A stretch of 61,240 nt of DNA, the filler included, from Rhizaria sp. SCN 62-66 (Eukaryota), in NCBI GenBank assembly GCA_001724265.1. It is 4 parts of 4 records of this genome, joined end to end, with 100 filler letters (N's around TTAATTAATTAA, not from the genome) between each part and the next. Parts side by side here need not be neighbours in the genome. Positions count along the whole stretch, not along the records: positions 48,869 to 61,240 come from MEDY01000679.1; 3 more parts are not named here. One strand, given 5' to 3'. Shown here in pieces: positions 7,965-57,283 of this stretch. The notes below the pieces were generated by a model. It ran no database searches. It saw only the letters and a program-made list of their open reading frames with translations, and had not been told where the DNA came from. The position numbers and the translations under genes are program-made. Within the stretch, counting starts at the first letter, position 1. Each line of letters opens with the position of its first letter.

Positions 7965-8934
7965 ATGCAGCACCCCCAGAGCCAGAACCAGGGCCCGATG
8001 CCCCCGCACGGCGGGCACATGGTTGCGCAGCAGCAGCAGCAGCCTTCGGGCCCCGTGCGTCTGCCTGACGAGCTGGTGATGCTCGTGGGCGAGCTGCTGC
8101 ACCCCGGCGAGCGCCGCGTGCACGCGCTGGAGAAACTCATCCGCTACCACAACTCCGTTGACGTCTTCGGCTTCCTGCTGTGGCATACGCCCGGTGTGAT
8201 GGCCGCGCTGGTGCAGGAGATCACGTTTCTCTACCCGATGCTTGACTCGCTTACCAAAGAATCATCAGGCCGCTGCTGCAACACGCTGGCGATGCTGCAG
8301 GGCGTGGCGTCCAACGCGGACGTGCGCATCCCGTTTGTGCGCTCGCAGATCTTCATGCTTGTGTACCCGTTCCTAGCAATCAAGGTTCCCAACAACACCT
8401 ACATGGACAACGTGCGCGTGACTGCGCTGGGCGTCATCGGCGCGCTCGTCCGCATGCCCGACCCCGAGGTCATCGAGGTGCTGCTGCAGTGCGAAATCTT
8501 CCCTCTGTGTCTCTCCAACATGGATTCCTCCGTCGCCATGCCCGCCGCGCTGTCGACGCTCATCCTGCTCCGTCTGCTCTCCGTTCCCAATGGCATGCAC
8601 TACGTCACGCAGAGCTACGAACGCTTCTACTTCATGCTCTCCGTGCTCGCGCGCGTTGCACAGCGCATCGACTCGCAACGTCTCGCGCGCTATCTCATCG
8701 GCTGCTACGCCAAGCTCGCCGCAAGTGTGTCGCCCCAGGCGCGTCTGACTCTGCGCCAGCTGATCCCACCCATCATGCGCGACGACTCGCTGCTCGCCTT
8801 CGTGGGCCAGGATGACGTGCGCGCCATGCTGCTCTAGCTCAAGGCCTTCTGCACTGAGCCCACGCTCGCGCCCGCTGCGGCTACCGCGACCGGCCAGTCC
8901 AACCCCGCCGGCATGGGCATGCAACAGGGCATCA

Positions 8935-8993
<59 letters not shown>

Positions 8994-8997
8994 CAGC

Positions 8998-9034
<37 letters not shown>

Positions 9035-9137
9035 GCAACAACAGCAACAGCAGCAGGGTCATGTTGTGCAGCAGCACCACGGTGTGCAGGTGCAGCAACA
9101 GCAGCAGGGCGGGCAGCCACAGGGCCAGCACCCCTGA
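7965..9137 (+). CDS. CNOT9: CCR4-NOT subunit 9 (Rcd1/Caf40) with in-frame TAG at 8835-8837 and a polyQ tail
   Basis: Rcd1 motifs LLWHTPGVMAALVQEITFLYP, SGRCCNTLAMLQGVASN, LVYPFL, VRVTALGVIGALVR and LLQCEIFPLCL. The frame stays open after TAG (LKAFCTEPTLAP...MGMQQGINV-Q39-...GQHP) to TGA 9135-9137. Confidence 0.9.
8940..9056 (+). repeat. CAG/CAA trinucleotide repeat encoding about 39 Gln
   Basis: Uninterrupted CAG/CAA run, in frame with CNOT9. Confidence 0.95.
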
Positions 9138-17465: not shown

Positions 17466-17565
17466 NNNNNNNNNNNNNNNNNNNNNNNNNNNNNNNNNNN
17501 NNNNNNNNNTTAATTAATTAANNNNNNNNNNNNNNNNNNNNNNNNNNNNNNNNNNNNNNNNNNNN
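17466..17565. other. Artificial contig linker N44-TTAATTAATTAA-N44
   Basis: Exactly 100 nt. The core gives stops in all six frames. Identical at three places in the window. Confidence 0.97.
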
Positions 17566-17976: not shown

Positions 17977-19385
17977 TTAATAAAAGTCCCTCTGCTGCTG
18001 GTTCTTCTGCACCCTCTTGGCGACCTTCTTGCCGCACTTGTAGTGCATGACGACGCAGGCGCCGTCGCCGCTGACGACGATGCCCATGTCCTGCGTGCCC
18101 GCCGCGTAGGCTGCGACGTGCTGGCTGTCTTCGGCCAGCGCGTGCGCCGCCTTGGCCGCCACAACGGCCGAGAGGATGTGCGGTGGCAGCGACCCGCCCG
18201 GCTCGGACAGCAGCAGCACGGGGTAGACCGACACGACGGTGCGCTCGCCGATGAGCTTCATGCACTCGGGGCAGCGCGACGTCGGCATCACCACCAGCGC
18301 CGGCTGCCGCGCGCGCAGCACCTCCTCCTTGGTCTTGAGGAAGTGCATGCGGTGCAGCGCGGCGGCGATCTGCATCGTGCGTCGGTGGTGCAGCAGCTCG
18401 GGTACCGCGCGCGACAGGTACGGCATCGCGGCACGAAGCGGGAACGAGTCAGGCAGCACCGAGAGCACGTCGAGCGGCGACAGGTGGCGCCAGTGGTCGC
18501 GCAGGATCGCCATCACGTGCTGCAGCCACGACGCGCCGGCGCCCTCGGCCGCGGCCGCGCTGGCCTTGTTCGCGGCCGCGGTGTGGGTCACCACGCGCCG
18601 CAGCCGCGGGTCGAAGGCGTAGTCGACGTGCGGCATCTCCTCGGGGCTCTCCGTCGGCAGCATCGACACCGCCGCGCTCGCGGAGCTGCCACCACCACTT
18701 GCGGCACTGCTGCTCGAGGTGGCAGCGGCGGCAGCGGCGGCGGCAGCGGCGGCGCGGCGCGGGGCGCTCGTCTCGCTGTTGTTGCTCGCGGCGGCCGCGG
18801 CCGCGGCGCGGCGGTCGTAGTCCTGCAGCGCGGCGGGCGAGACGTCGAGCACAGCCTTGAGCGTCGAGATCACAGTGATGGCGCCCGTGGCGCCGATCGT
18901 CTTAGCCGTCGTCACGCCCGCCAGCGCGCCCGCGTCGTCGTCGCCGTCGCCCTCGCTGTCGCTGCCGCTGCCATCGCTGGCGCTGGCGCTGGCGCTAGCA
19001 TCGCTGCGGCCGCCGCTCTTGCTCTCGTCGCCGCCGCGGCCGCCACGGCGGTCACGGCCACGGCGCTCGCGGACGCTGCGGTCGTAAGATGCGTCCTCGT
19101 CGTCCTCGTCCTCGTCGTTGTCGTCGGCGTCGCCGATGTCGATCTTGGCCAGGTCCGCGACCTCGCCCGCGCTGGCGGGGTGCGCCGCGCGGAACCCGGC
19201 CGAGCATAGCGCCTGCAGCAGCAGCGCGTACACGTTCGGTGGGGTCAGCGCCGCCAGTGGCACCATCGGGCCCGCGCTGGCCGCAGCTGCAGCCGCAGCC
19301 GCCGCGGCAGCCGTGGTCGCGGCGGCGGCAGCGGCGGCTTTGCTGGCGCTGGTGCCGTCTTCCTCCGCGGCGGCTGCGGCGGCCG

Positions 19386-19417
<32 letters not shown>

Positions 19418-25400: not shown

Positions 25401-26885
25401 TGAGCGCCTGCAGCGGCAGCAGGTCCGGGAAGAGCGCAATGACCGCGAGCGGGGACGCGCCGCCGAGCCGCAGGTGTTCGAGCGCGCGGTCGAAACGCAG
25501 CGCGCGCAGCAGTGCACAGCCGGCGCGGACGTGGAACTTGGCGAGCTGCGTGACCGTGGGCGAAGTGCGCAGCAGCAGCGCCAGCGCCTCGTCGACGGCC
25601 AGCCGCGCAAGGTATTGCTCAACCTGCGCGGCCGTTGAAGTGACCGTGAGCAGACAAACCTCGGAGTCGGAGGCCACGTAGCACGACGGCGGGTGCGGAA
25701 AGGGCGCGCGCGCGCAACCGCCCGTAGGCGTGGGGTCCCGGTCTGCCGTCACCGCGAAGGCGCCGCGGGGCACGGTGCACGCGGCCGCGGGCGCGGCGGC
25801 GACCGAGGGGATCGTCTGCGCAACGCTCGAGTCGACCATGGAGATGGCGGCGGCCGCGCCGTCGGTGCCCAACACGACAGTGTACTGCGGGCCGACTGTG
25901 GTGATGGCCAGCGGCGGGCTGGTGATGGTCGCCGGGTTGCGCTGCGCGGGTTCGCCGCTCTCGCACATGAACACGGCCAGGTCCGCGCGCGTCACCAGAA
26001 ACTCGTTCGTGGTGGAAATGGCCGTCACGCAGGGCGTCGCGCCATCAAGCGGCAGCGGCACGTCGACGACGGCGCCCGTCAGTGCGTTGACGATCGAGTA
26101 CTCGCGCTTGTAGCCGATGCAGAAGCTGGCGCCCGTCCACGCGATCGTGAGCACCGTGTCGGGGATCGCAAATTCGCGGATCAGGTCGAACTTCTCGCCC
26201 AAGTACTGGTAGATCATCACCTTGCGCTTGGCCTTGTGCGGGACGACCAGCGACACGGGTGCGCCCATGTGCGTGGCCGAGTCAGCGGAAGACGTCAACG
26301 GACTCAGCGCAAAGCACGTGCCGGCGTTGGCAATGTCGGTCTTGTCGGGAAACTTGCGGAGGCCCTCCAGGTCGAAGAGCATGAGCTTGGAGTCGGCCAG
26401 CACGATGAGCGCAGAGAGGCGCGGGCACACCTGTAAGGAAAAACAAATGAAGATAACAATGATACAACGATCATAATTAAGAGTAGAACCGTGCATTAAA
26501 GACGATTAGCGCGTATTATCGCTAGGTGGAAAGTAGAACTCGACGATGTGACAATAGCGTTGAGAACTAAGCAAAGACGTACTTGTAGCTGAGTGACGGG
26601 CTTCTTGGCAACGACAGTCTTCTTGACGACGAGATCAAACGTCGTGGACAGCGCGCCGGAGCTCCTGCCTGCGCCACCAGCGCCATCGCCGCCCGCGCCG
26701 CCGCTGGGCGATGACGCGTTGAGGTCTGAGCGAACGTACTGGTAGAGAAAGCCCAGTTTGGTGCCGACGTAGACGGAGACGCCCCAGGCCGCGATCGAGG
26801 CGATGCGGTCGCCCGAGGCAACCACGTCGGCGCCGATCGCCGTGCGGTATGCATGGAACGCCTCGAAGGAGGACGCGCCCGACAT
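17977..26885 (-). CDS. VPS39/TGFBRAP1 (Vam6/Vps3) family protein, about 2918 aa (exons 26885-26583, 26430-17977)
   Basis: CNH-like N-terminus (SIAAWGVSVYVGTKLGFLYQY, KKPVTQLQV, IREFAIPDTVLTIAWTGASFCIGYKREYSIVN). CHCR-like RARFRAFLQSNDQYD and ERIVLYARLGRHAEVV. C-terminal LDVLSVLPDSFPL...CPECMKLIGERTVVSVYP...HYKC zinc finger. Intron 26582-26431 (GTACGT...CAG) keeps frame. Ends TAA. Confidence 0.85.
23875..23935 (-). repeat. Hexamer repeat encoding an (SR)n dipeptide tract inside the VPS39-like gene
   Basis: Plus-strand (CCGAGA)n-like run; translation SRSRSRSRSRSRSRSRSR. Confidence 0.8.
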
Positions 26886-27849
26886 GTGCGCTGGGAGAAG
26901 GCCGGTGGATGCTGCGGCGCGAGCGCGAGCGAGGTGAGTGGAGAGAGACGAGTCGGGGTGACAAGAAAGAGGTTGGGCGACGTAGGTCACGCCAGTTCTC
27001 TCGGTCCTAGAAGAGCGAGGGAAGCTGCTGTAAAAGCGCCAGTGTATGAACAAGTAGATATAATAGAGGGAATTTGTGTCAGAAAGATAGATTTGATAAA
27101 GGTGAGAGATCTGGACGACGATATGGCAGATTTAAGAAGGGCAAGGGAGGTGTATCACAAGGGTGACATTGGGACAGTTATACACATGACAGGTGGGAGC
27201 TGTATCAACAAAAAGTAAATGCCTGGTAATCAATGCAAGTGGACAGTCGCCTATTTTAAGCATATCGCTGTTGACGGATTCCTGACCGAGAACAGAGTAG
27301 ATTTTTAAAGGCTGATTAGAGCTCTGCCACTGACCGTGTGGCGGCCTAACTTTCCGCCCAAGAGCTCTGAACTGCACTGGAGCAACCATATTTTGCCCTC
27401 GTAAACGGTATTACCAGCCAGCTATAGAGATAAGACCGGCGTATTTGTCATTTCCCGTTCTTGTCAAACTCTGTGCATCTGATATATTGCGTCAAGACCT
27501 TTACCAGCCGTACCAAGCATTAACAATAGGTGTTGCCTTCAAGTTCTGTGGGGCTCTTCGCACACCGTGCGCAACGGGTCTTGTTCTCGCCAGAGACTCC
27601 GTCAGCGATAAAACGAATACGATTCTCTATTGCACCTCGCACGGAAACCTTGCTCATTTCTTTACTGCGTCTTCCCTTGCCGATCTACCCTTCCCCGTAG
27701 GCTCTTTTCGTTCCGACTTCTCGAGTCTGCCCCACTCTGACACAACTGCTACTCCCCCAGCAGCCCTCGCCTCGCCGCCGCACCGCCCCTCTGCACACCC
27801 GCTGCTGAACCGCGCCTCCCGGGTTCTGCTTTCTAGTCTGCGCGCGCGC

Positions 27850-30800
27850 ATGCCTCCCCGTCCCTCCGCCGGCGCATCCGGCGGCTCGCGCAAGCCCTCC
27901 TCCGACAAAGCTCACCATAACAACAAAAAGAGCAATAACAACAGCAACCACAATGGCAGCTCCTCCTCCAAGAAGCAGCAGCTGCAGCAGCAGATGGTCG
28001 ACGCGGACGCCGAGCCCGCTGCGGCCGCCCCACCCGCGCCCGTGCCCGCGGCGGCGTCGGCCGAAGCGCTGAACCAAGCGACGGCGGCGCTCAACAACGC
28101 TCTGTCCAAGTCGTGGCGCGTCGCGCGACAGCACAAGAGCAGCTACATCGGCGGCCGCGCGCACCTGGCGGCGGACGCGTCTTTCGTGGCGTGCTGGGAC
28201 AACGACGCGGTGGTGTTCTTGGACGTGACGAGCGGCGAGGTGGTGCACCGTGTGGTGACGGCCGAGGAGGACGCCATCACGGCCTTCGCGCTGTCGCCCG
28301 ACGACCGCACGTTGTACACGGCGCACAAGCGCACGATGGCGATCAAGAAGCACGACGTGGCAACGGGCGCGCTGATCCGCCAGTGGCCCGGGCACCAGCT
28401 GCCCGTGATGGACATGGCGCTGTCGCCCGACGGCCGCTTCCTCGCCACGGGTTCGGCGGACCGCACGGTGCGCGTGTGGGACACCGCGGGTGCGTTCGTG
28501 ACGCACAACTTCACCACGCACACGAGCATGGTGATCAAGGTGGCGTTCCACCCGCACGCGCGCCGGCTCGAGCTGGCCGCCGCCTGCGACAACGGCTGCG
28601 TGCGCTACTGGGCGCTCACGGCCGCCAAGGGCGCCGACAACGGCTTCGAGGTCAAGGGCCACATGTCGGCTGTGACGTCGCTCGCCTACAGTCACTGCGG
28701 CACGTACCTCTACACGGCCGGCCGCGACTCGGTCTTCACGGTATATAACACACTCAAGCGTGAGGCCGTGACGACGGTGCCCGTGTTTGAGGCCGTCGAG
28801 GGGCTCGTCCCGCTCCACCCCGCGGCCGCCTTCCCCTTCAAGCCCGCAAGCGCCGCCGCCACGGGTGCGAGCGCGGCGCCCGCGCCCTACGTGGTGATCG
28901 CGGGCGACAAGGGCCTGGTCCGTGTGTATGATGTGCTCTCGCGGCGCTGCGTGCTGACGTACTCGCCCGCCGCCGACGCCCTCATCCCGGGTTCCCACAC
29001 CGACCTGCACAGTCAGCTGGGGCTCGCCGCGACCGTGACGGACAAGGACGGCGTCTCGGCCTCGGCCTGGGTCGCCATCACGGGGCTCCTGCTCGGCTCC
29101 AAGGCCGCCGCACCCGGGGGCTACGTCCCGCTGCCGTTCGTCGCCAGCGCGCGCGCCGCGGCACGCCGGGCTGCGCGCGCCAAGGCGCTCAAGAGCGGCG
29201 ACGCGGTCGCGCTGCATGAGGCCAGCAAGAGCGACAGCTTCACGGGCCACGGTCTCAATGACGACGACGACGAGGAGGGCGAGGGCGCGGAACAGTACGA
29301 GGACGAGGAGGAGGCCGCGGCCGCCGCCGAGGCCAAGGCCGAGCGCGCCGCGGCGGCCGAGCTGGCGGGCCGCGCGCTGTTCAACGAGCCGTGTCTGATC
29401 GCGGTCACAGCCGAACACAACTTCGTCTTCGTGCCGCTGTCGACGCTGGCGCGGCGCAAGGTGCTGGTGGGCTTTAACGACGACATCGTCGACGCGCGCC
29501 TCATTCCCAACACGCGCAAGGTCGTCGTAGCGACCAACTCGCCCCAGCTGCGCATCTTCGACCTGGACGACCTCTCGGCCGAGCTGCTGTCGGGCCATTC
29601 GGACTGCGTGCTCTCAGTCTCGGTCTCCTCCTGCGGCCGCTTCATCACCTCGGCCGCCAAGGACAACACCGTCCGCGTCTGGCTTGTCAACCCGCCCCAC
29701 GTGCCCGCGCAGGCCATCGTCAACGGCACCGTGGCCGTGCCCGCGCTGCCCGGCCGCCGCACTCAGCGGCCCTTCGCCCAGCTCGTCGCCGTGGGCCACG
29801 GCCACACCGAGGCCGTCGGTGCCGTCCAGCTCTGCTCCAAGACGCCCGAGTTCTCGCTCTTCGCGTCGCAGCACAACCCGGCCGCGCGGCAGTTCTCCTA
29901 CGCCGCCGCGCCCTTCTTTGCCGTGTCAGGCTCGCGCGACCGCACGGTCAAGTCGTGGTCTCTGTCGCATCTCCTCGCGCTGGCCGACCCCGCCAACCGC
30001 GAGCGGCTCGAGCGCTACCTGGCCGACGCCGGCAACACGCGCACCGCCGCGCTCGCCGCAGCAAGGAAGAAGGCCAAGGCCGACGAGACCGAGGCCCTGA
30101 AGGACGCCGCGCTTGCCGCCACCAAGGGTGCGACGACGGCAGCCAACGTGTCGTCCGGCGGCGGCAAGGTGGCCGGTGCCAAGGCGGGCGCGCAGTCGCC
30201 CGAGCAGCAGGCTAACGCTGAGATGGCACGCGCGATGCGGCTCTCGCAACACGCCGTCTTCACCAAGGTTGACGGCGCCGACGTCGACGTCGCCTCGGCG
30301 CTGTGCGTGCCGCTGCGCCTCGCGGCCTCGGCCACGGCGCTCGCACACGACAAGGACATCAACACCATCGCCGTGGCGCCCAACGACCGGCTCGTTGCCA
30401 CGGGCTCGGCGGACCGCACGATCAAGGTCTGGTCGCTGCCGACGCTGGCGCCCGTCGCGGTGCTGCGCGGCCACAAGCGCGGCATCTGGGCGCTCGCCTT
30501 TTCCCCCGTCGACAAGGTCCTGGTCTCCGCGGGTGGCGACAAGGTGCTCAAGCTCTGGTCCATGGCCGATTACTCGTGCATCCAGACGCTCGAAGGCCAC
30601 CAGACCGGTGTGTTGCGCGCGTCCTTCGTGCGCCGCGGGCAGCAGGTCATGTCGACTGACTCGGACGGCGTGGTGAAGCTGTGGACGATCAAGACCTCAG
30701 ACTGCGCCGCCAGCTACGACACGGCGCACGAGGGCAAGGTGTGGGCGCTCACTGTTGCCGATGCGAGCGTGGTGGACCCCGCGCGCGCCGAGAAGGTCGG

Positions 30801-32244
30801 CATGGTGCTGCCCACGCTCGCGGCCGACTCGCGCACGCACAAGGCAGCCGTCGCCGCCTCGCAGTCGGCGGCGGCCGCGGCGGGCAGCTCCGCGCGGCGC
30901 TTCCACCGCGGACCGCGCGCCGTGCTGCTGGAGCCCGTGATGGTCACCGGCGGCATCGACTCTACACTGACTGTGTGGCGCGACGTCACCGAGGAGGAGG
31001 CGCTGGCGGCCGACAAGCTGGAGCAGATGCGCACGCTTAAGGAACAGCAGCTCCTCAACGCGCTCAAGAAGCGCGAGTACGAGAAGGGTTTCGAGCTCGC
31101 GCTGCAGCTCGGCCACCCGCGTCGCCTCTTCCTCGTCCTCTCCGACCTCACTGACGCAGAGAACCGCTACAAGCGCTTCCGCTACCTGACCAAGAAGCGG
31201 CACGATGAGCGTGACGCGCGCCGCGCCGCCCGCAAGGAGGGCCGGTTCCGCGCGCTGCGCGAGCGGCTGCGTGACGCCGAGGCCGCTGCCGTCGTCGCCG
31301 CTAAGGCCGCCGCGGCGGGCACCGGCAAGAAGGCCGAGGCGCGCGCCGCGCTGGCCGCCGCGCGATACAAGGGCAAGACGGCGGGCGAGCTCGCGGTCGA
31401 GGACATGTCGTCCGAGAGCAGCGACGAAGACCCCGAGGAGGAGGAGTACATCTTCGCCGAGGCCAAGGAGAACCTCGAGCTCAAGGTCGTCAAGCCGAGC
31501 ACGAGCGTGCGCAAGCTGGTCGAGGCACGCACGGTCGAGGAGTTGGGCCAGTGCGTGGCTATGGCGCAGGAGTGGAACACCAACGCCAAGCACGCGCCCA
31601 TCGCGCAGTACCTGCTGCGCACCATCCTCACCTCGGTTGCGCCTGCAGTGCTGCGCCAAGTCCCGCGCATCAAGGACGCCGTGACGGCGCTCGCAGTGTA
31701 CTCGCAGCGGCACTTCAACCGCGTCAACACGCTGCTGCAGGCGTCGTACTTCATCGACTTCACGTTCCAGAGCATGAACCTCCTCGTGCCCGGCTCGCTG
31801 GGCTTCGGCGTCAGCGAAATCGACGAGCTGAGCGACGACGACACCGCTCTCTCTACAACCGCTAAGGGCAAGGCCAAGGCTGGCGCGAAGAGGGCGTCGT
31901 CGTCGTATATGGCCAAGATGCTGTCGTTGGACGTGGACGAGAGCGAGATCGAGGCCGAGATGTCGCACACCGACACCGACAGCGACAGCGACGGCGACGA
32001 CAACGACGAGGGCGACTATGACGAAGACGAGGACGAGGATGAGAATGATGCCGAGGCTGACGGCGAGGGCGACAACAGCGACGATGTTGCTGCTACGCCC
32101 GACGCCGACGCCGACTCTGGTTCTGAGTCGGAGGTCGAGGCTGCTCCTCAGGTCAAGCGCTCCAAGCCCGCAGTCACTGCTGCTGCTAAGTCCAAGGATA
32201 CTGTCGCCAAGGACGCCAAGCTCGCTGCCAAGCCCGCTGCCGCC

Positions 32245-32282
<38 letters not shown>

Positions 32283-32844
32283 CAAGGCCAAGGCCAAGTC
32301 TGCCGCCAAGGACGCCGCCTCTGCAGGCGCTGGTGCCCCTGTGGCGGGAGCGCTGTTCGACCCCAGTGAGGCGCAGGTGGCGGCTATCGTGGCGCGGATG
32401 GACGCCGCGCGCGCGCAGGCGCTGGCGCAGGCGCAGAAGGCCGGCGGCTCGCGCGTGCTGTCGTCGGCACTGCTCGCAAACATGGACGCCAAGGTCGCCA
32501 AGGCCGAGGCCGATGCTGCTCAGAGCAAGAGTGGCAAGAAGGCCTCCAAGAAGGGCGCTGCCGCCGCTGCCGCGACTGCTGCTGCTGCTGATGCGGAGGC
32601 TGAGGCCGAAGATGGATTCAAGATGAGCGCGGAGGATGAGGCCTTCTTCAACTCGCAGAGTTCCTGGGGCCCGCCCAAGACCTCCTTCGGCACCGCTCCC
32701 GCTGCCGCAGCCACTAATGAGGGCAAGGACAAGAAGGACAAGAAGGCTGCGGCCAAGGTGGCTGCGACTGCTGATGATGAGAGCAAGGAGCACGACGCTG
32801 TTGTCAGTGACAAGAAGGGCACCAAGCGTGTTCGCGCTAAGTGA
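27850..32844 (+). CDS. UTP13: U3 snoRNP WD40 protein Utp13/TBL3 with long acidic/Lys-Ala tail
   Basis: Many WD40 repeats (LATGSADRTVRVWD, AHDKDINTIAVAPNDRLVATGSADRT, LRGHKRGIW). Utp13 signature VGFNDDIVD...VVVATNSPQLRIFD. C-terminal EWNTNAKHAPIAQYLL...YSQRHFNRV...YFIDFT. First plausible ATG at 27850. Ends TGA. Confidence 0.93.
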
Positions 32845-33464: not shown

Positions 33465-33564
33465 NNNNNNNNNNNNNNNNNNNNNNNNNNNNNNNNNNNN
33501 NNNNNNNNTTAATTAATTAANNNNNNNNNNNNNNNNNNNNNNNNNNNNNNNNNNNNNNNNNNNN
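33465..33564. other. Artificial contig linker N44-TTAATTAATTAA-N44
   Basis: Same 100-nt linker. Confidence 0.97.
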
Positions 33565-44082: not shown

Positions 44083-45346
44083 TTACTGCTGCGCCTCTGC
44101 CTCGGTGGAGGCGTGCGACTGAAGAATGAGCCCCGCAATGGCCTCCGCGACGCTTCCGCCGTCACTGCCCCCCTCGCTCTGCCGCCCCCGCACCGCATTC
44201 TGGCCGTCACCATTCTTGTTATAGCTGTCTTGGTCGTCGCCGTGCGAGGTGGGCAGCGCGAGCAGCTCGCGCACGCGCCGCAGCACCCCCGCCGTCTCCG
44301 GGCTTGCGGGCCTGGCAACAGCGGCGGCGGCGGCAGAAGCGGCGCCGTCGCCGTCGCCGCGGCCGCCGCCGCCGCCGCGGCCGCTGCGCACGGTCACGCG
44401 CAGCCCGCTCTCGTCATCATCATAATCGCCGCCGTCGCCGTCGCCGTCGCCGTGGTCACCGCCAAGGTTGACAGCCTCAGCGTCGACATCAGCCTCAGCG
44501 TCGGCCGCCGTGTCGGCGTCCGCAGCCGCGAGCAGCGCCGCCGCGTCCGCGTCCCCCGCGGCCTCCGCCGCCGCCCCAGCCTCCTCCGCATCCACATCTC
44601 CAGCGCCCGCGCCAGCGGACCTTGCGGCTGAGGCGGAGCCCGCGAGCAACGCGTCTGCGTCGGCGCCGGTGCGCGCCTGCAGCGCCTCCCAGCGCGCGAC
44701 GCCGGCGCGGTAGCGCGCCGTCGGCAGGTGCGCCGACAGAGTCAGCTCCAGCTCATGCTGCTCGCTCGCAGCAGCCACAGCGGCAGCAGCGGCAGCGGCG
44801 TCAGCGGTGTCGAAGTGAATAGTGTCGGCGTCGGCGTTGTAAGCGGGAGCAGCGGCGTCGCTCTGAGACGTCCGAGCACTTGCACGCCTGGCGTTAAGAT
44901 GATCGTTATCGATGTGATTGTTGTTGTAAGAGCGCGCAGTGGGAGCCCCAGGACTGTTGGCCGCAGACTCAGTCACGGCCTCCGCGTCCGCGTCCGCGTC
45001 CTCAGCCTCGGCCACGGCACCCAGATTCGCGCCAGCGCCAGTGTTCGAGCTCGAGCTCGCAGCAGCGACGCCGCTCGCGGTGGCCGCCGCAGGGGCCGCA
45101 GTTGCCGAGAGTGGAAACGGAAGCATGAGCAGCTTGCTGAGAGAGCCACGGGCGCCGACACCGCCGGCGACGACCGCGGCGGCCGCGGCGGCCACAGCGG
45201 CGGCGTCCGCGCGCGCTGCCGGCGGCGCCGCCGGCGACGACAGCAGCGGCGGCAGCGACGGCGTCGCAGCGGGCGCCGCGGCCGCCAGCGCGAGGCTGGA
45301 GCTCATGTGCGCGATGTCCCGCGCCACAGCGCTACTGCTGCTCGTC

Positions 45347-45390
<44 letters not shown>

Positions 45391-45576
45391 GCTGGCGCGA
45401 GTGCTCGCAGCGGCGACTGGAGCGGCGACGGGAGCGATGGGACTGGGCTGGGGGCTCATGAGAGCAGGCATAGCTACCGTTGCAGCAGAAACAGACACAG
45501 CTACAGCTACAGAAGGGCTAGAGCCGGCGCCAGCTCCAGCACCAGCGCCAGTCGAGGCAGGCCCAGCGCCGCGCTG

Positions 45577-45608
<32 letters not shown>

Positions 45609-48600
45609 CGGCCCCGCTGGTCTCGCTGCCGCTGCCGCTGCTGGAGGGCGCGGTTTGGCAGAGCCGAGCGAGCAGCTCCTTGCGCGGGGGCAGGATCGTC
45701 TTGAGCGAGTGCTCCAGCGCCGCCGCCTGCGCAGTGAAGGCCGCAGCCGTGGCCGCCAGCGCGCTCTGCGCCTGCCCCACCACCGCGCACACGCGCGCCA
45801 GCACGCGGTGCCGCACCGCTGCGGGGGAAAGACGAGAAAAAGAGAAAGAGAAGGAAACAGAAGAGAGTCGAGTGAGCAATGAATGCGTTAGATAAGATCA
45901 GACATACGACTTAAAGAAATGAGTTAAAATCAGTTTTACGAATCAAATCGAGTTGTTTTCGGTTTGTTTGCATTAAGATGTGCTTATGCACACCGCTTTT
46001 GCTTGTTGACGTACCGAAGTGGTGGTTGTTGAACTGCGGGTGCGGCTTAACATAGGGGTTGTGGAAGAGGGTCAGTTGTCGCATCGCCGCCGCGGCCGCG
46101 GCCGCGGGCGCAGCCGCCTCGGCCTCGAGCGCCTTGGCGCTCTTGCCCACCCCCGCCACAGAGCCCCCGCTGCTGCTGGCGCTGTCGTCAGACGCGGAGA
46201 CGGAGAGAGCGGTGGAGAGGGAGGTTTTGTCCTGCGAGGACCGGTCGTGTCCGAGGCGCTCGCCGAGCGCGTGCTGCGCAGCGTGGAAGGCGTGGCGACA
46301 CTCGACGCACACGAGGCGGCGCTTGGGCCCGTCGGGCAGCCGCTCGACGCCCTTGAGCGCGCAGCCGTGGCAGAGCGCATGCCCGCACGGCCACAGGATG
46401 TACGGCGACGGCAGCAGCGGGCCGAAGCAGCCCGGGCACCGCAGCTCGGCAGCCAGGTGCTGGTCCAGCGCGGCCACTGCGGCGATGCCGGCTTGGATTG
46501 ACCGCACGTGGCCCGAGAAGGCCGCGGTCTTGGCCGTCAGGTCTGCCCACAGCGTGTCGTGCGCCACAAGCGCCTGGGTGGGGGAGAGAAAACAATAATT
46601 GCGGATAGAAGTGGGGATATGAGCAAGAATTGTGGTGTTGTTTCATAAAACTAGTAGGACATATCAAAAGCAACATAAATACTTAACAATATCTTTAAAA
46701 CTTGACATTGCAAAGAAAAAGTATCTTTTAGAGTTCTGTTTAAGTCATCTCGGTCGTTGTTATTTCAAGTCAAGGCTTGCTAAGTCGCTTTGCTTTGTTT
46801 CACAAACATACCTGGATAACCTCTTGGCGGAAGTGGAGCAGCTGGCGCTGGCGGCGCGCCTGCGCGGCCTTGAGGTCGTCGCGCAGCGCGACGAGCGCGG
46901 TGCGCTTGCCGCCCAGCCGCGTCCCCAGCGAAACCAGGTCCGCCCGCGCGGCCGCCGCGCCCGCCATCGCCGCCGCCACCGCGGCCGCCGCCGCCTCGGC
47001 CTCGGCCGCCGCCTCCGCGCGCAGCGCCTGCAACATCAGCTCCGCCTTGGCCACCGTCGCTGCCGCACCTGCGCCCGCGACAGAAGCGACGCCTGCATTA
47101 GTTGTTGTGGAGGTCGCGCGCACGAGCTCGGCCGCCGCGGCCGCCGCGTCCACATCCACAGTACTGCTGCTGCCGCCGCTACTGTTGCTGCTCCCGCTCT
47201 TCTGCTGCGAGCGGAGCCCGGCGTTGACGAGCGCGAGCTCGCGCCGCGCGGCCGCGAGCTCGGCGTCAGCCGCGACGGCCTCCTCGCCCGCGCGCGCGGC
47301 GGCTTCAGCGCGCAGCCGCAGCCGCTCCCGCAGGAAGCGGACCAGCTCCCCCACCGGCAGCGCCCCGCCGCCGCCCCCGCCGCCAGCACCGGAGCCAGCG
47401 CCGCGCAGCAGCCGCGCCTCGACGCCGTCATGATCGTCGTCATCATCATCGCCGTCGTCGCCGTCGCCGTTGCCGTCGCGACCGTAGAGCCCAGCGAGCG
47501 CGGCGGCGTCTGCGGCGTCGTCCCCGGCCGCGGCGGCCGCCTCGGCGCTAGCCACGGCGGCGCCTGCGCGCGCCTGCTGCCGCAGCGCCTCGTTCTCGCC
47601 CCTGAGCCGCGCGGCCTCCTCCCGCGCTCGCGCGAGCTCGGACAGCGCCGCCACAGCCTCGGCCAGCTTCGCTGCATAGCCGGACACGGAGCCTTGCAGG
47701 CGCGCGGACTGCGAGGCGGCGCGCGCGCGGGCGGCGGCGCGCGCGGTGGCCGTGGCGGCGGCGACGCGGGCCTGGAAGGCGCGCAGCAGCCGCGCGCGCT
47801 GTGTCTGCAGCCGCGCGAGGAGCAGTGTGCGATGCTGCTGCTGCGTCATGACCGTGGGCACGCCGTCGCCGCTGCTGCTGCGCTCGCCCGCCATCAGCTG
47901 CTGCTGCTGCTGCTGCAGGGGCAAGGAGGCGGCGGGCAGCGGCACTGGGAGCCGCGGCACCACTTGCGGACCGGTCGTCTTGAGGGCGACCGCGTTTCTA
48001 GCGCTCTCGCTCGCGCTGGCGCTCGCAGCGGCAGCAGGGTCTGAGGCAAGGTTGAGGTGACTGAGCGAGGACTGGGAGCTCGAGTGCAGAGAGGAAGATC
48101 CCGCGGTCAGGAGGTAGCCGCCGCTGCTGTTGTTGTTCCGGCTGTGCGTACCAGTAGCTGAGGGCGGATGTTCTGCCCAGACGAGGATGCCCCCGCCAAC
48201 GCCGCCAACACTGCCGCCGCCGCCGCCGCCGCCAGGGACGCCGCCGGCGGCGTAGGCGGGCGCGAGCGCCGGCGGCACTGCGGGGGCGGGCGCCGGCGAG
48301 GGGCCCGCAGTCACCGTCGCGCGCGCCCCCACCACAACGCCAGTCGCGACGGCGTCTGCGGTACGGTCAGCGCTGTCGCCGGCGTCGGTGGGCGCGGCGT
48401 AGGCCTGCTGCTGCTGCTGCTGCTTGAGGTGCTGCAGGTGCTGCTGCGAGAGGCCCGAGCGGGTGCCGGTGCGAGAGAACGAGAAGGCTGGGGCCGCGCG
48501 CAGAGTCGCCCGCGCCGCCGCCGCCAGCGCTGAGCCGTCGCCGCCGCCACCGGCGCTCGCAGCCGCGCCCGCGCTGTTGCCGCGCAAGCTCTGCTGCTGC

Positions 48601-48768: not shown

Positions 48769-48868
48769 NNNNNNNNNNNNNNNNNNNNNNNNNNNNNNNN
48801 NNNNNNNNNNNNTTAATTAATTAANNNNNNNNNNNNNNNNNNNNNNNNNNNNNNNNNNNNNNNNNNNN
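48769..48868. other. Artificial contig linker N44-TTAATTAATTAA-N44
   Basis: Same 100-nt linker. Confidence 0.97.
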
Positions 48869-51241
48869 ACCGCCCAAGCCGCCGCCCCGCTTGCGACAGT
48901 GTTGTCGCAGCTCAAGCTGTACACTGCGCAGTCAATGAGTGCTGAAGAGAAGAGGCTCGCAAAGGCATGCAGCGACCTCGAACGCATCAGCAAATCTGTC
49001 GCTGCGCCCGACGTCACGGCGTTGGCCGCACTCGTTGCAGCAAGCCCTGGCTGGCCCGCGAGCGTGGGCCCGGAGCTCGAAATCAGTAACGTCAAGTATG
49101 CAGCCGCGCGCAAAGCTTTTGAAGCCGCACTCGCTGATGCCGCTACGACCACGACTCCACGCGAAGTTGTTTTTGAGGCTGATGTTCCTGCTTCTGCGCT
49201 CGCCACCGACTTCGCCTTGGGCACAGCTGAGCTGTGCGGTGTGCGCTTTAGTTTCAGTGCGCGCCGTGGCTGCAACTGCGCGTCCAAGCCTTTGTCTAGC
49301 AGCTTAGGTGTGCGCGTCAGTGGCGCCGGTGTGGAGGACGTGAACGCGCACTGCGCATGTGGGCTTGAGTGCAAGGTGAAGGCAGAGCCAGTGTGGAAGG
49401 CCCTGGCCGCGCTTTACAAAGCATGTGGTGCACGCGCGCTCGCTGTTGATAAGCTTGTCTCCACCAACAACGACGATAGCGACGACGATGAAGACTGCCA
49501 CATCAACGGCGCTGTAGGCACTCCATCTATTGATAATTCTGCAATCAAAGCTGTGAATCCGGCTGCCACTGCTGACGTGCTTGTTGCTGCTCCTCCTCTT
49601 ACAACGGTTGCAAGCACATTTGGCTGCGTGAACGTCTCCGTTACTGCTGGCGTGAAGTCGGAAAGTAGCAACCAAGGCCAGACTCGCGGATCCGGTCAGG
49701 TGTGGTTGACAGGAGGCAATCATGATGTGGGCGAGGATGCAAACGAAAGCAAGTCTCATGTGGAGTCCGACATCAACGCTAAGAACGCAGCGTCTGCTGT
49801 TGAATCGGGAAACGGACGCACAGCCGTCATCACGGTAGGCCTTCCGTCAGCACTAAACGTTGCGCTGTCTCAACACAATGCAAGTAACACCCAAACAAGC
49901 AACAACACCACTGTGTTGCGTGTGCGCTGCAGTGTGTCGTTTCCTGACGTTGTGCAGCAGGCGCGCGCATTGCAGCTGTGCGTGGACGCTGTGGCAACCG
50001 ATATCGTTGCACAAGCCGATGCCAACCAGCAACGTGTGCTTGCGCTGGAGGCAGAGAAAAAGGTTTGGCAGGTTTCCAAGGCCGATTATGAGAAAAAGAT
50101 TCTCATGCTAGAGTGTCACCAGGAGAAGTGCAAGGTCGATTATGAAAAGAGGGTTCGTTTGCTCGAGTCTGACAAGGAGGCGTTGCAGAACAGGCGAAAC
50201 GCGTTGGAGACTGAAAAGCGGAGTTGGCAGAAGTGCAAGATGGATTATAATTCCAGGATTCGTTCGCTAGAGACTGACAAGGAGGCTCCGGAAACTAAAC
50301 TAACGCCGCACTGGCAGCGAGTTGCTGATGATGAAGCATATGAAAAGACTAAAGCAGAAGAGGAAGCTAAGGCAAAGGCAGAGGAAGTGGAGGCTCGACG
50401 TCGAGATGCGCCGTGGGTTACTTTACTGAAGTCTTCTGCGTGGGAGGCCGAGTTCAACACGCACATCGCGCATACTCTTAGTGTCGCTGGTATTTGGGGT
50501 TTTCGGCCCCCTAAGCGCAAACTTCGCGCGCCATCGTCAGCGGTACTTGGTGCTCTGCAAAAAAAGGCGCGTGATCGCATGTTGTCTTACTCAGCATTAA
50601 CTCTAAAGACCGCATATCATTCGGATTTTTTAATGAAGGCACAATTTCGTGACCCTCAGACGCAAGAGTTTGTGGATTACTGTGTGGTAATCCGGCTTGA
50701 TGATGCAAAGTTTCCCGCCACCGCCGCTTATGTTCGCTTTGCTGTGAGTAAGTGGAACTTCTCCTACTTAGTGCACCATTGTTTTGTGCCACCTGGCCAT
50801 AGTACAGCAGCAATGCCTTTTTTCACGCTCTGCCGCGACGATGTCAACGTGTTATGTAAAGATGAGTATTTAATGGTGCTGCCGGACGCTGATATCGTCT
50901 ACGGGGAGTATACAGCACCTGGTGCTGACGCAGGCCTGATCTATCCAGTCGGCTCAGTGCTCGTTTATCCGCACTGTGTGGTACCTTCTCCATCTTTCTA
51001 TGGTGACACACCTATATTCATCGTTGTTTAGCCCTGCGCAGCAAGTCTCCTGCGCGGTGCAGTGCCAGTCGGTCGCGTGATGTCATGCGTGCAGGGGACA
51101 ACAGCGACGAAAGCAGACAACAGTAGCATGCCTTTCGATGATGCTGTGATGCGCCGGTTTACGCATCATTGCAAGAGTGGGGAGTGTGATAGGGATGCGA
51201 GCACGTACTCCTATTGCGTCTTTAATAAATTTATGGAATGA
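48869..51241 (+). CDS. Coiled-coil protein with divergent C-terminal cyclophilin-like domain; in-frame TAG at 51029-51031 (5' truncated)
   Basis: Long ORF with repeats (K.DYEK.I..LE). VVIRLDDAKFPATA, YPVGSVLV and DTPIFIVV*PCAASLLRGAVPVGRVM parallel cyclophilin IVIEL...PKTA, PG.LSM and SQFFI...LDG...FGRV. The frame stays open for 69 codons after TAG, to TGA 51239-51241. Confidence 0.55.
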
Positions 51242-52129: not shown

Positions 52130-55100
52130 TTAGAATGGCTGGTGCACGCGCAGTCCGGAGCCAGCAAGTTTCTTCAGCTCCTCAAGCATCTCGTCAGCAC
52201 TCATGCCGCGCTCAACGCCCACTGCAGCCGCTGCGACCTCGCTCTCAGTCGCCACCGGCCCACTGACACCGGCAGTTGCGGCAGTTGCGGCGGCGGCACC
52301 TGGCGTCATCACCGCGATCGCGCCATCATCATCATTTGCCACAGTGTCGGTTGTTGCGCGAGTACCACTGGAGTTACTAGCCGCAAGCAGCGCGGCGCGC
52401 GCCTAGGCGTTGTTGCAGCGGACAGGCCCGTGTGAAAAGAGCCCACTGGGGTCGTCCTCCGCACTCCACGCCGCCGAGTCGCCAACCCCGGGCCCGCGCG
52501 GGCGCCGCGGCGGCAGCGGCACGGGCGGTCCCCCGCCGCTGACGCTGCCCATGCGCAGCTGTTCGAGTCCCGACTCCGGATCTGCCTCGGTCCACGCGCG
52601 CAGCCCCATGGTTTCGAGTGCTTCGTTGCGCGCCACGCCCTGCAGCGACAGCGCGGCGACACGCTGCTGGTTGCCCCAGTGCTCCAGCGTGAGGTTGCGC
52701 ACGGCGAGCACGGCCCACTCTCGGAGGAACGGGTTGTGCGCGCGCACGAGGCCGGCCGCGGAGGTCTCGCCCGCACCAGCCGCGGCGGTGCAGTCGAGAA
52801 CGCGCTCCGTGGCGCCCACAGCGCCGAGGGCAGTCTGAGCGCCGCCGCGGGCGTCCAAGTGTGCGGCGTTGCCCAGCAAGCGTACGCAGTCGACCTAAGA
52901 CATATTAAGGGGTTAAGGGAGATAACAAATTTCATACAAATTGGTTAGCGTTAATAGATATAAAGAGCTTTTAAAAAGAATGCACGAATGATGAGATACT
53001 TAAACTAAACGTCGCAAATTTCGGTGTACAGACACATACCTGGAATGAGAAGGGACTGCGGTACTTGCCGGGCCGCTTCTTACTGGCGGCCGGTTCCGTC
53101 GTCGCATCAGCGCTAGCGCCTTCATCCTTCTCTTCCCCGTCATCGCTCACCGCCGAACTGTTGCCATCGTTGCTGGTGCTCATGTTCTTACCGGCCGCAA
53201 TCGCGCGGGCTTCGTCCTTGAGCTCGGCCAGTCCGTCGCCGGCGCCTGCGGGGAGCTCGTCACACGCGGCAGCGGCAGTGAGCAGTTGCACTGCGACAAG
53301 CAGCGGGGATACGAGCAAATCACACCGTAGCGCACCGATTGAGTCACTGCTCGATTGCGACTGTGACTCTGACTGTGAGTCCGCTGACCGAGACTAAGAC
53401 TGTGGTAGGGTCTGTAACTGTGACTGGGGCTGAGGCGCGGGCACAGCGCACCGTGCGGCGGCGGCAACGAGTGCAAGCGTGGGGCCGTGTGTCCGCAGGA
53501 CACGGGCAGCCGGACCCTCACTCTCAGCCACTCTCTCAGTGTTACCCGCAGTCGCACTTGCACTCGCGATCCCCGTCTCGGCGGCGGTCGGACTTGCGGT
53601 CTGATCGAGGGCGAGTCTGACTGGCAGCGGGCCGGGCGCCGGGTACAGCGCACGGTCCAGCGCGTGCAGCGACGGCGCCAGCGCGGCCAGCGCGGCGTCG
53701 GCGCGCGCGCTCGCGGAGGCCCACGCGCGCGCGGAGGCCGAGGCGGGGAGCGGTTGCGGCAGCGGCGAGGGCAGCGGCGGCGGGGCGCGGCCTGTGGAGT
53801 CAGCAAGCAGCAGCGAAGGGCGGAACACTGAGCCCCATCCGTTGCGCACATCAGCGTACACCACCATCTCACTCTCACTGTTTTTATCGCTCGAATTGCG
53901 ATTGCTATCGCTAGTGCTGATGCTGTCGGTGGGGCTTTGGGCGTCGTTGGTGGCAATCAGCCCTTCCGCCTCTGCCTCGGCATCGTCCGCAAGCAGCGCA
54001 GCGAGCCCCGACAGCGCGTGCACGGCAGGATGCGCCCAGTGCAATAACCCTGCAGACGACACAAGCGCCGGGGTCAAACCAGTCGCGGCCGCGGTCACCG
54101 CAGCGGTCGCAAGCACTGACCGCGCGACAGGCGCAGTCTTCGCGGCAGCGGCAGTCGCATTCGTCGCAGAGGCAGCGGCACTGCCAGCACTCGCGGCATT
54201 GGTGGCGGGCGGCGGGGCAAGCAAGTCAAGCGGCGACATGCGCAGCGGGGCGTCGAGCCAGCCAGCCACCGCCGGCGCCTCAAATCCGCTGCTCAAGGCC
54301 ACAGTACAGCCGCTACCAGGGCTGTTGTGAGTGGTGTGAGCGCTCTGTTGGGGGCGGCGTGAGTCGCAAAGTGCGTGCGCGCGCGTGGCGGCAGCAACGC
54401 GGCCCACGAGGTCCATCGCCGCGCCAGTCGCCGCGGCCAGCGAGCGCACCTCCGGCCGCAGCCGCGCCGCCGCGCCGCCGTCGGTCAGCGGCAGCCATAG
54501 AGATCCGGGGGCGCCGGGCCGCGCGCCCGCAGCAGACGCGGCGCCAGCCGCGGCGGCCAGGTCGCCCGCAGCGGTGTCGATGGCGGCGAAGAGACGCGCA
54601 GAGGCGACCGTAAGCGCGGCCACCGACCGCAAGCGTAGTTGCCGCAGCCGGCGGAGGCACCGCACGAGCCCGCCAGGAACAGGCGCAGCGGCGGCGGTCA
54701 GCGCGGCGGCGGCAGCAGCGCGCGCGGCGTCAGCGTCCGTCGCCTCCAGTGCGGCCGCGGCGGCGACGGCAGTGGCAACGGCGCGCGCGGCATTGGGCGC
54801 CCTGGCAAAGGCCTTCTTGGCGGCGGCTTCCGTAGCGACGGCAACGTCCGCGGCATCGGCGAGCATCGCGGCGGCGGCACGCGGGACCAAGAGCGGGTCC
54901 GCGGCGAGCGCAACGCTTTCAAGCAGCGCGCCGCGCCAGACCGACAGCGGGCGCGCGCAGGCACCGCGGGTGAAGGGCGCCTCGCCGGGGTCAGCGGTCG
55001 GAGTCGCGGTCGCGCTCGCCGACACCAGCGCCGCAGTCGCATTCGGCAGCGCACCGGCGACACCGCTCGTACTGCTGCAGGCGGTTTCCTGTGCGTGGGC

Positions 55101-56948
55101 GCCGGAGCGCGTGTGCGGGGCGGGCGCAGGCGGCAGCGGCGCGGCGTGCGGCGCCGCGAGCGCGAATAAACCACGCTTGATCCCATTTGCACTCAAAGTT
55201 GCAGCCGCAGTAGAGAGAGGCGCAGTCGAGAGAGGCGTGGGGGCGGGCAGGGCGGCGTCAGGCTCTGTGGTAGAGCGCGCAGGCGGCTGGTACCACCCGG
55301 GGCGGCGGCCCGCGGTGGCGGGCATGTCTGCGTCAAACGCAGGCTCACCGTCATCATCTGCAGCGACAACATCGTCTTGCTCCGGCACATCGTTGTCATC
55401 AATCGCATCGTCATCGGCGTCTTTGTCGTTCGCGTCGCAGTGTTCGGGGTGAGCCAGGAAGATGTCGTGTGCGGTCAAAAGCTCTTGCGCGGCCTCCTCT
55501 GCGGCGTCGTCGTCATCGTGGTCCCATTCGCCGTCGCTGTCAGCGGCGTCGTTGTAATCATCAGCCTCATCGGTGCTATCAGCCTCGTTGTCAGCGGCGA
55601 TCTCGGCGTCCCACAGTGCGCCCCACGCCGGCGAGTCCTCAGCTAAAGCCAACGCAGCGCTTAAACTCCTCGCATCATTCTCATGCTCACGGTCACAGCC
55701 ACTTGACCTTTGCTCACAGTCGCTTGCGGAGCGGGGCGCACGGGCCGTGGTGTCGCTGTTGCGGCGCTCACGGGGCACCCAGCGCGCGGCGCGCGTCGCG
55801 ATCGCAGGCGCCGCGGCGGCAAGCTGGGGCAGCGTCGGTCCGAGCAGCAGCGGCAGCAGCGGCGCCCAGAGGGCAGACTGCGACAGCGCAAGCGCACGGA
55901 CGCGGCTCACCACGGCACCGTTGTTGCCGTCACTGGTATTACTATTGGCAGTGGGATTGGCGTTTAGTGCAGCGACAGACCACGAGAAAAGCGCGCCGTC
56001 GTCGTCATTATTAGCGATGTGGTCTTCTGCGTGTGCATGTGCATTCTTATTGTTGTTGTTGTTGCCAATGTTGACTGTGAGCAACAGGGAAGAATGAAGC
56101 AGCCCCCAAAAGGCGTCAGCAGTCTCGGCATCAGCGTGGGTAGCAACGCAGCGCCACACACGCGCACGCCACGCCTCTTTATCCACACAGTCGCTCCTTG
56201 CGCCTTCACTGTTGTTGCGTGCGTTAGAGTTACTGCAGTTGCTGTTGCTGCTGGTGCTGATGATAGAGGCAAAAAACAGAGGGAAGAGTTGGGCGCGCGC
56301 GCTCGCAGGGGCGAGGCCCGGGCCGGCGCAGGCGTTGGCTGCAGTGCGCATCAGAGCGCGCGCAAGACGGGCGAACGGCCCCGCAGCAGTCACAACAGGA
56401 CGACCGTGACGGCGACGAGTGTTTGCGGTGGACGTCAGAGGTGCAGACCGCTCAGTGCGAGAGAGTGCGTCAGGCACGTTGTCGCCGTACAACGCGCAAA
56501 GAAGACGCAGCAGCACGTCCACGACGCTGCGCTGCGCGGCACCGGAGACGGGGAAGGGGCGGGTGAGTGCGGTGGCGACAGAGGCTTGTGCGCCGGCAAA
56601 CGCGCCAGCGGCCGCTGCGGCACACGGGAGCGCCCACATGCGGGCCAGGCGCGAAGCGGTCATCACCGTGGCTGTTGCGGCGGCGGCGACGGCGGCCTCA
56701 GAATTAGCGCCTGCGTCCGCGTCGGCGTCGGCATCGGCACAGTCGGCTGCGACGGCGCGGTAGGGCGTGTAGGCTGCGAGGGGCAGCGCCACGGTGTGTT
56801 CGGCAAGGGCGAGGCAAGCACTCGCAATAGAAGACGTGAGCTCAGGCGTAGGCTCCGCGGGGAGAGCACCGCGCTTGACTTGATCGACGAAGGCGGCGAG
56901 CGGCGCGAGCGCGGACTCGAGTGCCGCCACGGCCTCTGAGTCAGACAT
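52130..56948 (-). CDS. Ataxin-10/Ctr86-domain protein, about 1557 aa, with two in-frame TAGs (exons 56948-53040, 52894-52130)
   Basis: FQVDCVRLLGNAAH...VLDCT...HNPFLREWAVLAVRNLTLEHWGNQQRVAAL is the ataxin-10 C-terminal domain. Intron 53039-52895 (GTATGT...GCTAAC...TAG). ORFs 53394-56948, 52971-53318, 52403-52879 and 52130-52342 join into one frame if TAG 53394-53396 and TAG 52403-52405 are sense. Ends TAA. Confidence 0.8.
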
Positions 56949-57283
56949 CGCGAAGCGAGGGATTTGAAGAGGCGAGAAAACGACCTTCTGATCGACAACA
57001 TTAGGTTATATAAAGGTATATGAGTTTTTTCAAAGTGTTTCATAAGATTCTTAAATTATATTTCTTGAATCAGTCTGTGTGTGTCAATATTTATATTTTC
57101 ATTTCGTCTAACCTCAACCCACTTTTCCCGCTCCACCACAATCGCTCCGCCAACCACATTCTTTAATTTGCGCACTCGACTCTCTGCTGCCATTGCCACC
57201 ACACATTGATTCATGCACCACCCCATCTTGGCCACCTGCTGGCATTTGTGCGTACCCGTCGTCGCTTTCTGTGTCTCAGCAGG

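Follow-up and report, generated by a model that had tools for sequence, protein, structure and literature searches.

Few nuclear genetic codes give UAG and UAA different meanings. The literature consulted here lists Iotanema, the rhizarian exLh, Scotinosphaera, Protocruzia and some phyllopharyngean ciliates. In the nuclear code of Iotanema spirale (Fornicata), UAG encodes Gln and UAA and UGA are stops (PMC5304391, PMC9161772), and eRF1 is altered at its GTS motif (PMC9161772). UAG is reported to encode Leu in exLh (PMC5304391) and in three uncultivated phyllopharyngean ciliate metagenome-assembled genomes (MAGs; PMC11687900), and Ser in Scotinosphaera, as cited in PMC11687900. Gln is the commonest meaning in the known cases, Leu and Ser being also known for UAG-only codes (PMC5304391; PMC11687900). 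Here we analyse a stretch of 61,240 nucleotides (nt) of DNA from Rhizaria sp. SCN 62-66 (assembly GCA_001724265.1), referred to as the window, in which a gene of the ataxin-10 family on the minus strand of contig MEDY01000679.1 contains two in-frame TAG codons, designated TAG1 and TAG2 in the order of translation. TAG is likely to be a sense codon here, under a changed code that reassigns UAG alone and keeps UAA and UGA as stops.

The window resembles Iotanema in that only UAG is found in frame, genes end with TAA or TGA, and Gln is the likeliest meaning of the reassigned codon. In Iotanema, 204 in-frame UAG codons are counted in 126 genes, compared with 4-5 in about 15,000 codons of genes very rich in guanine and cytosine (GC) in the window, and Gln was shown from 28 hyperconserved sites, whereas the present case offers no decisive site, and neither the tRNA nor eRF1 was seen in the window. 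With the codes in which UAG encodes Leu or Ser the window shares the reassignment of UAG alone, and some of these were likewise found in metagenome-assembled genomes with standard-code gene calls. In exLh, UAG usage is heavy (384 in-frame UAG codons in 71 genes), and in the phyllopharyngean ciliate MAGs UAG occurs in 81-91% of genes, unlike here.

Reading frame and homology of the ataxin-10-family gene

The minus-strand frame that starts at ATG 56948 is open for 1184 codons up to ...PQPQSQLQTLPQS-TAG(53396-53394)-SRSADSQSESQSQSS... and stays in that frame for a further 118 codons, as far as the GTATGT donor at 53039. Exon 2 begins at 52894 with VDCVRLLGN..., runs for 163 codons that include NPFLREWAVLAVRNL, and then passes through RCNNA-TAG(52405-52403)-ARAALLAASNSS, after which 90 codons lead to TAA at 52130, as a first-pass annotation of this DNA had described. 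The same annotation had proposed a single ataxin-10-like frame that needs both TAGs as sense codons. Its statements on the sequence are correct; between ATG 56948 and TAA 52130 the frame is interrupted only by TAG1, the 145-nt intron and TAG2 (Table 1). The ATG lies just inside an AT-rich spacer (GC content of 0.22 at 57000-57099).

Frame, codon usage and homology all continue across both TAGs, and the locus is best explained as one intact two-exon gene of 1557 codons. The predicted protein starts with a long N-terminal part rich in Ala, carries the Atx10homo_assoc domain in the portion encoded by exon 2, and finishes with a C-terminal tail. From TAG1 to the intron, the codon-usage log-likelihood per codon is -3.90 in frame, compared with -4.35 and -4.68 in the other frames (a margin of 0.45); after TAG2 it is -3.82, compared with -4.41 and -4.64 (a margin of 0.59). 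For comparison, 129 windows of 90 codons taken from other genes have a median margin of 0.50 and a 5th percentile of 0.19. The GC content across TAG1 is 0.56-0.70 per 100 nt, against 0.22-0.39 at both ends of the gene, and no AT-rich spacer is present.

Exon 2 matches the Pfam family PF09759 (Atx10homo_assoc) with 46.7 bits, above the cut-off of 28.9 (E-value (E) 3.1e-12), in the profile search that had been proposed as a check. This is the sole Pfam domain of the gene and it lies downstream of TAG1, where a stop would cut it off. A search of exon 2 against 1.84 billion representative proteins gave 43 matches with E <= 1e-3, the two best of which are open reading frame (ORF) calls from this locus itself. 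The closest true relatives, P0013, P0014, P0015, P0017 and P0018, are environmental ORFs of 331-830 amino acids (aa) that also carry PF09759 and share a C-terminal D-x-M-L-x-E-L-K motif.

A homologue profile was built from these five relatives and run on all 1189 stop-to-stop ORFs of the window. Exon 2 is the best match (E 2.9e-28, profile positions 369-457), and the ORF behind TAG1 ranks second of the 1189 (E 0.0042, profile positions 277-369), its match being collinear with and abutting that of exon 2. The splice junction, RSPFSFQ joined to VDCVRLLGN, corresponds to NRSPxSFKVDxIxALxN in the homologues. The conserved block ...LLTAAAACDELPAGAGDGLAELKDEA... sits ahead of the first ATG behind TAG1, at codon 71, and the part behind TAG1 thus cannot be expressed from a start of its own. 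P0014, a single ORF of 830 aa, aligns with the window in four collinear blocks across TAG1 (residues 129-169, 470-497, 626-660 and 669-757); on the window side, BLASTP places them at residues 669-710 (E 0.005), residues 965-992 (E 0.003), residues 46-80 after TAG1 (E 0.007) and then in the domain.

Twelve residues before the C-terminus, MSADEMLEELKK resembles VDDMLSELKEEY and VTEILQELKEKE, which occupy the corresponding position in four of the five relatives (BLASTP E 0.022, from a single comparison), a likeness that is only suggestive of continued translation past TAG2. When the five-homologue profile was used to search for named relatives, it matched only four of its own five members.

In the ataxin-10 family, an armadillo-type repeat body precedes the Atx10homo_assoc domain. 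The protein described here shares with the family (PF09759) a C-terminal domain that scores above the curated cut-off. It differs in its length of 1557 residues, compared with 63-1234 in the library homologues listed, and in the 1184 Ala-rich residues ahead of TAG1, which match no family; a Pfam search with the upstream frame of 1203 aa also gave no match.

Table 1. Positions of the ataxin-10-family gene, its parts and the other in-frame TAGs along the window
Feature	Position	Strand	Description
Ataxin-10-family exon 1	53040..56948	-	1303 codons from ATG 56948; Ala-rich, no Pfam domain; TAG1 is codon 1185
TAG1	53394..53396	-	In frame, within an X-Ser dipeptide run; context tct TAG tct
Stretch from TAG1 up to the intron	53040..53393	-	118 codons, with ...LLTAAAACDELPAGAGDGLAELKDEA... 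(conserved block) and ...RSPFSFQ; no ATG before codon 71
Spliceosomal intron	52895..53039	-	145 nt, GC 0.32, AT-rich, GTATGT...TCTTAG, phase 0
Exon 2	52130..52894	-	254 codons and TAA; TAG2 is its codon 164
Atx10homo_assoc core	52586..52741	-	Exon-2 residues 52-103, NPFLREWAVLAVRNL...; PF09759 46.7 bits
TAG2	52403..52405	-	In frame; context gcc TAG gcg
Tail after TAG2	52133..52402	-	90 codons, GC 0.62-0.65, codon usage in frame
Motif near C-terminus, MSADEMLEELKK	52169..52204	-	Resembles VDDMLSELKEEY / VTEILQELKEKE at C-termini of P0013, P0015, P0017, P0018; suggestive
TAA stop	52130..52132	-	GC 0.61 before, 0.42 after
CNOT9/Rcd1 gene	7965..9137	+	In-frame TAG 8835-8837, then 99 open GC-rich codons to TGA
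In-frame TAG in 789-codon gene 48869-51241	51029..51031	+	69 open codons to TGA
TAG joining open frames of 179 and 157 codons	5737..5739	+	GC-rich DNA

TAG codons and gene ends across the window

We screened every ORF-ending stop with coding-like sequence in the 60 codons upstream, and then curated a set of 5 TAGs and 13 TAA or TGA gene ends. After the TAGs at 53394, 52403, 8835, 5737 and 51029 the frame stays open for 140, 90, 99, 157 and 69 codons, respectively, compared with 2-22 codons after the 13 ends of supported genes (5 TAA and 8 TGA; Mann-Whitney p 0.0008). The GC content of the following 60 nt is 0.55-0.73 after TAG and mostly 0.28-0.58 after the TAA and TGA ends, and in all five TAG cases it remains high up to the next TAA or TGA and then drops. 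Across the coding sequence of the window, in-frame TAG accounts for 4 of 14,866 codons (~0.03%) and in-frame TAA or TGA for none.

UAA and UGA remain terminators, their positions coinciding with a drop in GC at the gene ends, and in-frame UAG occurs inside conserved genes, twice in the ataxin-10-family gene and once in CNOT9, with two weaker cases. The base after TAG is T, G, C, A and C across the five sites; as the following bases differ, there is no shared read-through context. Reassignment had been put forward as more parsimonious than two nonsense mutations, and the data support this view: the frame contains no frameshift, the other TAGs of the window behave alike, and TAA and TGA are never followed by long open frames.

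The gene with the TAG at 8835 is identified as CNOT9/Rcd1 by PF04078 (191.8 bits) and by the PDB entry 4cru_B (E 7.3e-45). It is unusually divergent, with 35-38% identity to its best named relatives (from a chytrid, an ascomycete, a beetle and a bean). The Pfam match covers profile positions 8-248 of 260, and the TAG is located 7 residues beyond the confident alignment, in the last helix. The GC content, 0.73 behind the TAG, falls to 0.40 past the TGA. If the TAG is read as sense, the 99 codons behind it complete the last helix and add a tail with a run of about 45 Gln.

The case at 51029 is weaker because in-frame GTRHGT...YAG intron candidates are found around the TAG. The gene has no Pfam match and no PDB match at E <= 1, and its best Atlas score of 0.82, to cyclophilin-like clusters, is a lead only. 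The TAG at 5737 is also a weak case, since its gene belongs to no family.

Calls in a public protein collection end at the same codons. P0056 (1184 aa, from ATG 56948 to TAG1) is found on 7 contigs and P0011, which ends at TAG2, also on 7, with restarts behind TAG2 in P0012 (2 contigs) and P0055 (5 contigs); P0001 and P0054 end at the CNOT9 TAG on 4 and 2 contigs. That calls end exactly at the TAGs on several contigs makes sequencing error unlikely. The public entries for 52133-56948 (minus strand) and 7965-8834 (plus strand) are bacterial-style ORF calls only, with GTG or CTG starts written as M. Since every TAG ends such a call, the ataxin-10-family gene is broken up into three entries with no link between them (P0056, P0011 and P0012/P0055).

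The window consists of four contigs joined end to end and is not one molecule; the ataxin-10-family locus is on the fourth. The joining spacers, at 17466-17565, 33465-33564 and 48769-48868, each consist of 44 N, TTAATTAATTAA and 44 N, where TTAATTAATTAA provides stops in all six frames. The joins cut genes: an SDR gene stops 12 nt ahead of the first spacer, and the gene from 48869 lacks its 5' end. GC-rich coding blocks separated by AT-rich spacers, GTATGT introns and two tRNA genes characterize the window as eukaryotic. The GC content at third codon positions (GC3) is 0.72, 0.88, 0.83 and 0.67 in contigs one to four, and codon usage correlates between contigs at 0.88-0.95, making an origin from one organism plausible. 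Given the 145-nt intron and a GC3 of 0.67-0.88, a ciliate origin is presumably unlikely, judging from general features of ciliate genomes.

No tRNA with anticodon CUA was found in the window, where an Rfam scan detected two tRNAs, tRNA-Lys(CTT) and tRNA-Ser(AGA), and nothing else. The window also contains no eRF1. A scan of a collection of genome contigs with exon 2 as the query gave 335 pattern matches, none of which was confirmed.

Three single-exon genes of the window, at 17977-26505 (minus), 27334-32844 (plus) and 12046-15933 (plus), are very long (2842, 1836 and 1295 codons) and contain small domains (CNH, WD40/Utp13 and EDR2_C, respectively) within Ala-rich sequence, with a GC3 of up to 0.88 on the second contig. 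At 45914-46802 (minus), a GTATGTTTG donor at about 46802 precedes an exon that encodes a RING finger (zf-RING_5, E 6e-5) and enters an AT-rich stretch ahead of TAA 45911; an ORF at 44083-45897 lies in the same region. A small ankyrin-repeat protein at 6880-7488 (minus; Ank repeats E 9e-30) looks secreted, with a hydrophobic N-terminus, and ends at TAA. The partial gene at 1-444 (plus) has a lower GC content (~0.42) and a TAG at 199-201, followed by AT-rich sequence that ends in ...CATACGTAG; this TAG may adjoin an intron rather than be a sense codon.

Alternative explanations and the meaning of TAG

Several observations weigh against a reassigned UAG. The well-supported genes hold only three TAGs, the two in the ataxin-10-family gene and the one in CNOT9, with two further weak ones. 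TAG is the first in-frame stop in 3-4 of about 14 genes, a share that would be normal for the standard code; the lack of TAG terminators is therefore not independent evidence, and the argument rests on the sequence downstream of the TAGs. One-step precursor codons number 1707 for TAG and 484 for TAA (our sum of codon counts, with TGA left out), so that interruptions by TAG only are also expected from random nonsense mutation. All 4 in-frame TAGs counted lie on the first and fourth of the joined contigs, with none in the 7,666 codons of the second and third (Fisher p 0.055). Four short TAG-ended ORFs (6756, 9151, 16431 and 36302) meet the next stop quickly, are followed by AT-rich DNA and have low margins. 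They do not look like genes, but could still be TAG ends of genes in a window with only about 14-18 genes. A Pfam scan of three of them (6756, 16431 and 36302), together with six other frames, found no family for the three and nothing relevant; the fourth, at 9151, overlaps the CNOT9 poly-Gln tract in another frame.

At the ataxin-10-family locus, the upstream frame of 1184 aa has no match to the homologue profile, and matches of the tail after TAG2 fall short of significance (full profile, E 2.7; tail-only profile, E 0.34, second of 1189). The homologues end 9-75 residues past the domain and TAG2 lies about 60 past it, so that homology alone would accept TAG2 as the stop. In a six-frame margin test with 50-codon flanks, TAG1 and TAG2 reach only 0.24/0.01 and 0.06/0.12. 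The power of this test is too low, and a tRNA and a 5' leader came up in it as well, for which reason it is given no weight here.

Among the alternatives, the one that survives best, although unlikely, is an ambiguous or leaky UAG, which would still be a terminator but be read through partly or by context in some genes, so that long and truncated forms are both made. Such a codon would fit the extreme rarity of in-frame TAG (4 of 14,866 codons) and the position of TAG2, where homologues could end. Ambiguous stop/sense codes are on record, in the parts of PMC12005148 used here, for Condylostoma, karyorelicts, Blastocrithidia and Amoebophrya sp. ex K. veneficum, and share with the window in-frame stops in functional-looking genes. 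They involve two or three stop codons (PMC12005148), whereas only TAG is involved here, and in Amoebophrya sp. ex K. veneficum all three stops are in frame in an AT-rich genome (PMC12005148), compared with TAG only in GC-rich genes. Furthermore, none of the supported genes of the window has AT-rich DNA behind a terminal TAG, the short TAG-ended ORFs have low margins (and the three scanned no Pfam family), and no motif is common to the five TAG contexts. TAG1 lies 370 codons before the end of the gene, ahead of its only domain, and termination there would yield a product without the domain of the family.

Less probable again is that the TAGs are real nonsense codons, with the ataxin-10-family gene and the CNOT9 tail truncated or decaying under the standard code. 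According to the precursor counts TAG is the easiest nonsense codon to reach from this codon usage, to judge from the homologues the protein could end near TAG2, and the CNOT9 Pfam match is nearly complete ahead of its TAG (profile positions 8-248 of 260). Decay is, however, difficult to reconcile with two nonsense codons but no frameshift or other stop in 1557 codons, with downstream codon usage equal to that of control genes, and with a GC content that stays high to the next TAA or TGA and then falls in 5 of 5 cases. The same ORF ends are found on 7 contigs, and 3-4 of about 14 genes would need to have been hit.

The two remaining alternatives are very improbable. The 1184-codon frame could end at TAG1 with an independent ataxin-10-domain gene behind it, which would account for an upstream frame without Pfam family or homologue-profile match, but the reading frame is unchanged at TAG1, no AT-rich spacer separates the two parts, a conserved block precedes the first ATG and P0014 is collinear on both sides; the two transcription units that the first-pass annotation had named as a refutation find no support in the sequence. 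Sequencing or assembly error, or short in-frame introns over the TAGs, might be suspected in a window that joins four contigs of an environmental-data assembly, but the ORF ends are identical on 7, 7 and 6 contigs, an in-frame GTRHGT donor with a YAG acceptor occurs in 0 of 203 GT..AG pairs around TAG1 and 0 of 154 around TAG2, and the flanks are GC-rich compared with 0.32 in the real intron.

With translation of UAG as the preferred reading, Gln is its most likely meaning, if only by a modest preference over the other possibilities together. TAG is one transition away from CAG, TAG1 occupies a CAG-type slot, and in a gapless reading the CNOT9 TAG falls on a conserved Gln. In the X-Ser run around TAG1, the X slots are CAG, TAG, CGG, GCG, CAG, GAG, CAG and CAA, that is, CAG and its one-base neighbours. 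TAG1 had been described as sitting in the Gln slot of a Gln-Ser periodicity; its place within an X-Ser run stands, while the slot itself is mixed (CAG, CGG, GCG, GAG, CAA) and fits Gln without proving it. In CNOT9, the gapless reading sets RAMLL-TAG-LKAF against RKWLAQLLQAV, with the TAG on the Q of WLxQLL, a position with Q in 6 of 8 homologues and with N and E in one each. Against this, MAFFT opens a gap and puts the CNOT9 TAG on the following Leu, the hmmsearch alignment ends 7 residues short of it and hmmalign assigns it to no column, and UAG may instead mean Leu or Ser. TAG1 and TAG2 are both outside alignable columns.

Proposed mechanism and consequences

In a code of this kind, UAG would have been dropped from the set of stops while UAA and UGA were kept, and both in-frame TAGs of the ataxin-10-family gene would be translated. 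By analogy with Iotanema and the ciliate MAGs, as far as the sections of PMC9161772 and PMC11687900 used here describe them, a tRNA with anticodon CUA would insert an amino acid at UAG and eRF1 would no longer recognise this codon.

A tentative reading is that the window stems from a GC-rich, fast-evolving eukaryote, so far undescribed and known only from environmental assemblies, which may have reassigned UAG alone, independently of the known cases. The change could be at an early stage, in which UAG is already a non-stop codon but makes up only about 0.03% of codons, appearing first in the genes of lowest GC3. In the literature, seen mostly as listings and thus giving weak evidence on this point, no UAG-only code is reported in a GC-rich non-ciliate eukaryote, nor any beyond ciliates, Iotanema, exLh and Scotinosphaera. 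The code described here is a probable addition to the known UAG-only nuclear codes.

Codes that split UAG from UAA bear on how eRF1 distinguishes the two codons. With UAG as a sense codon, annotation of this organism under the standard code gives wrong gene models, which split the ataxin-10-family protein into three ORFs and leave CNOT9 without its tail, and public ORF catalogues would cut the proteins of the organism at every TAG. If the reassignment is true, the scant use so far of the freed codon in a GC-rich lineage would offer a natural snapshot of the early phase of codon reassignment.

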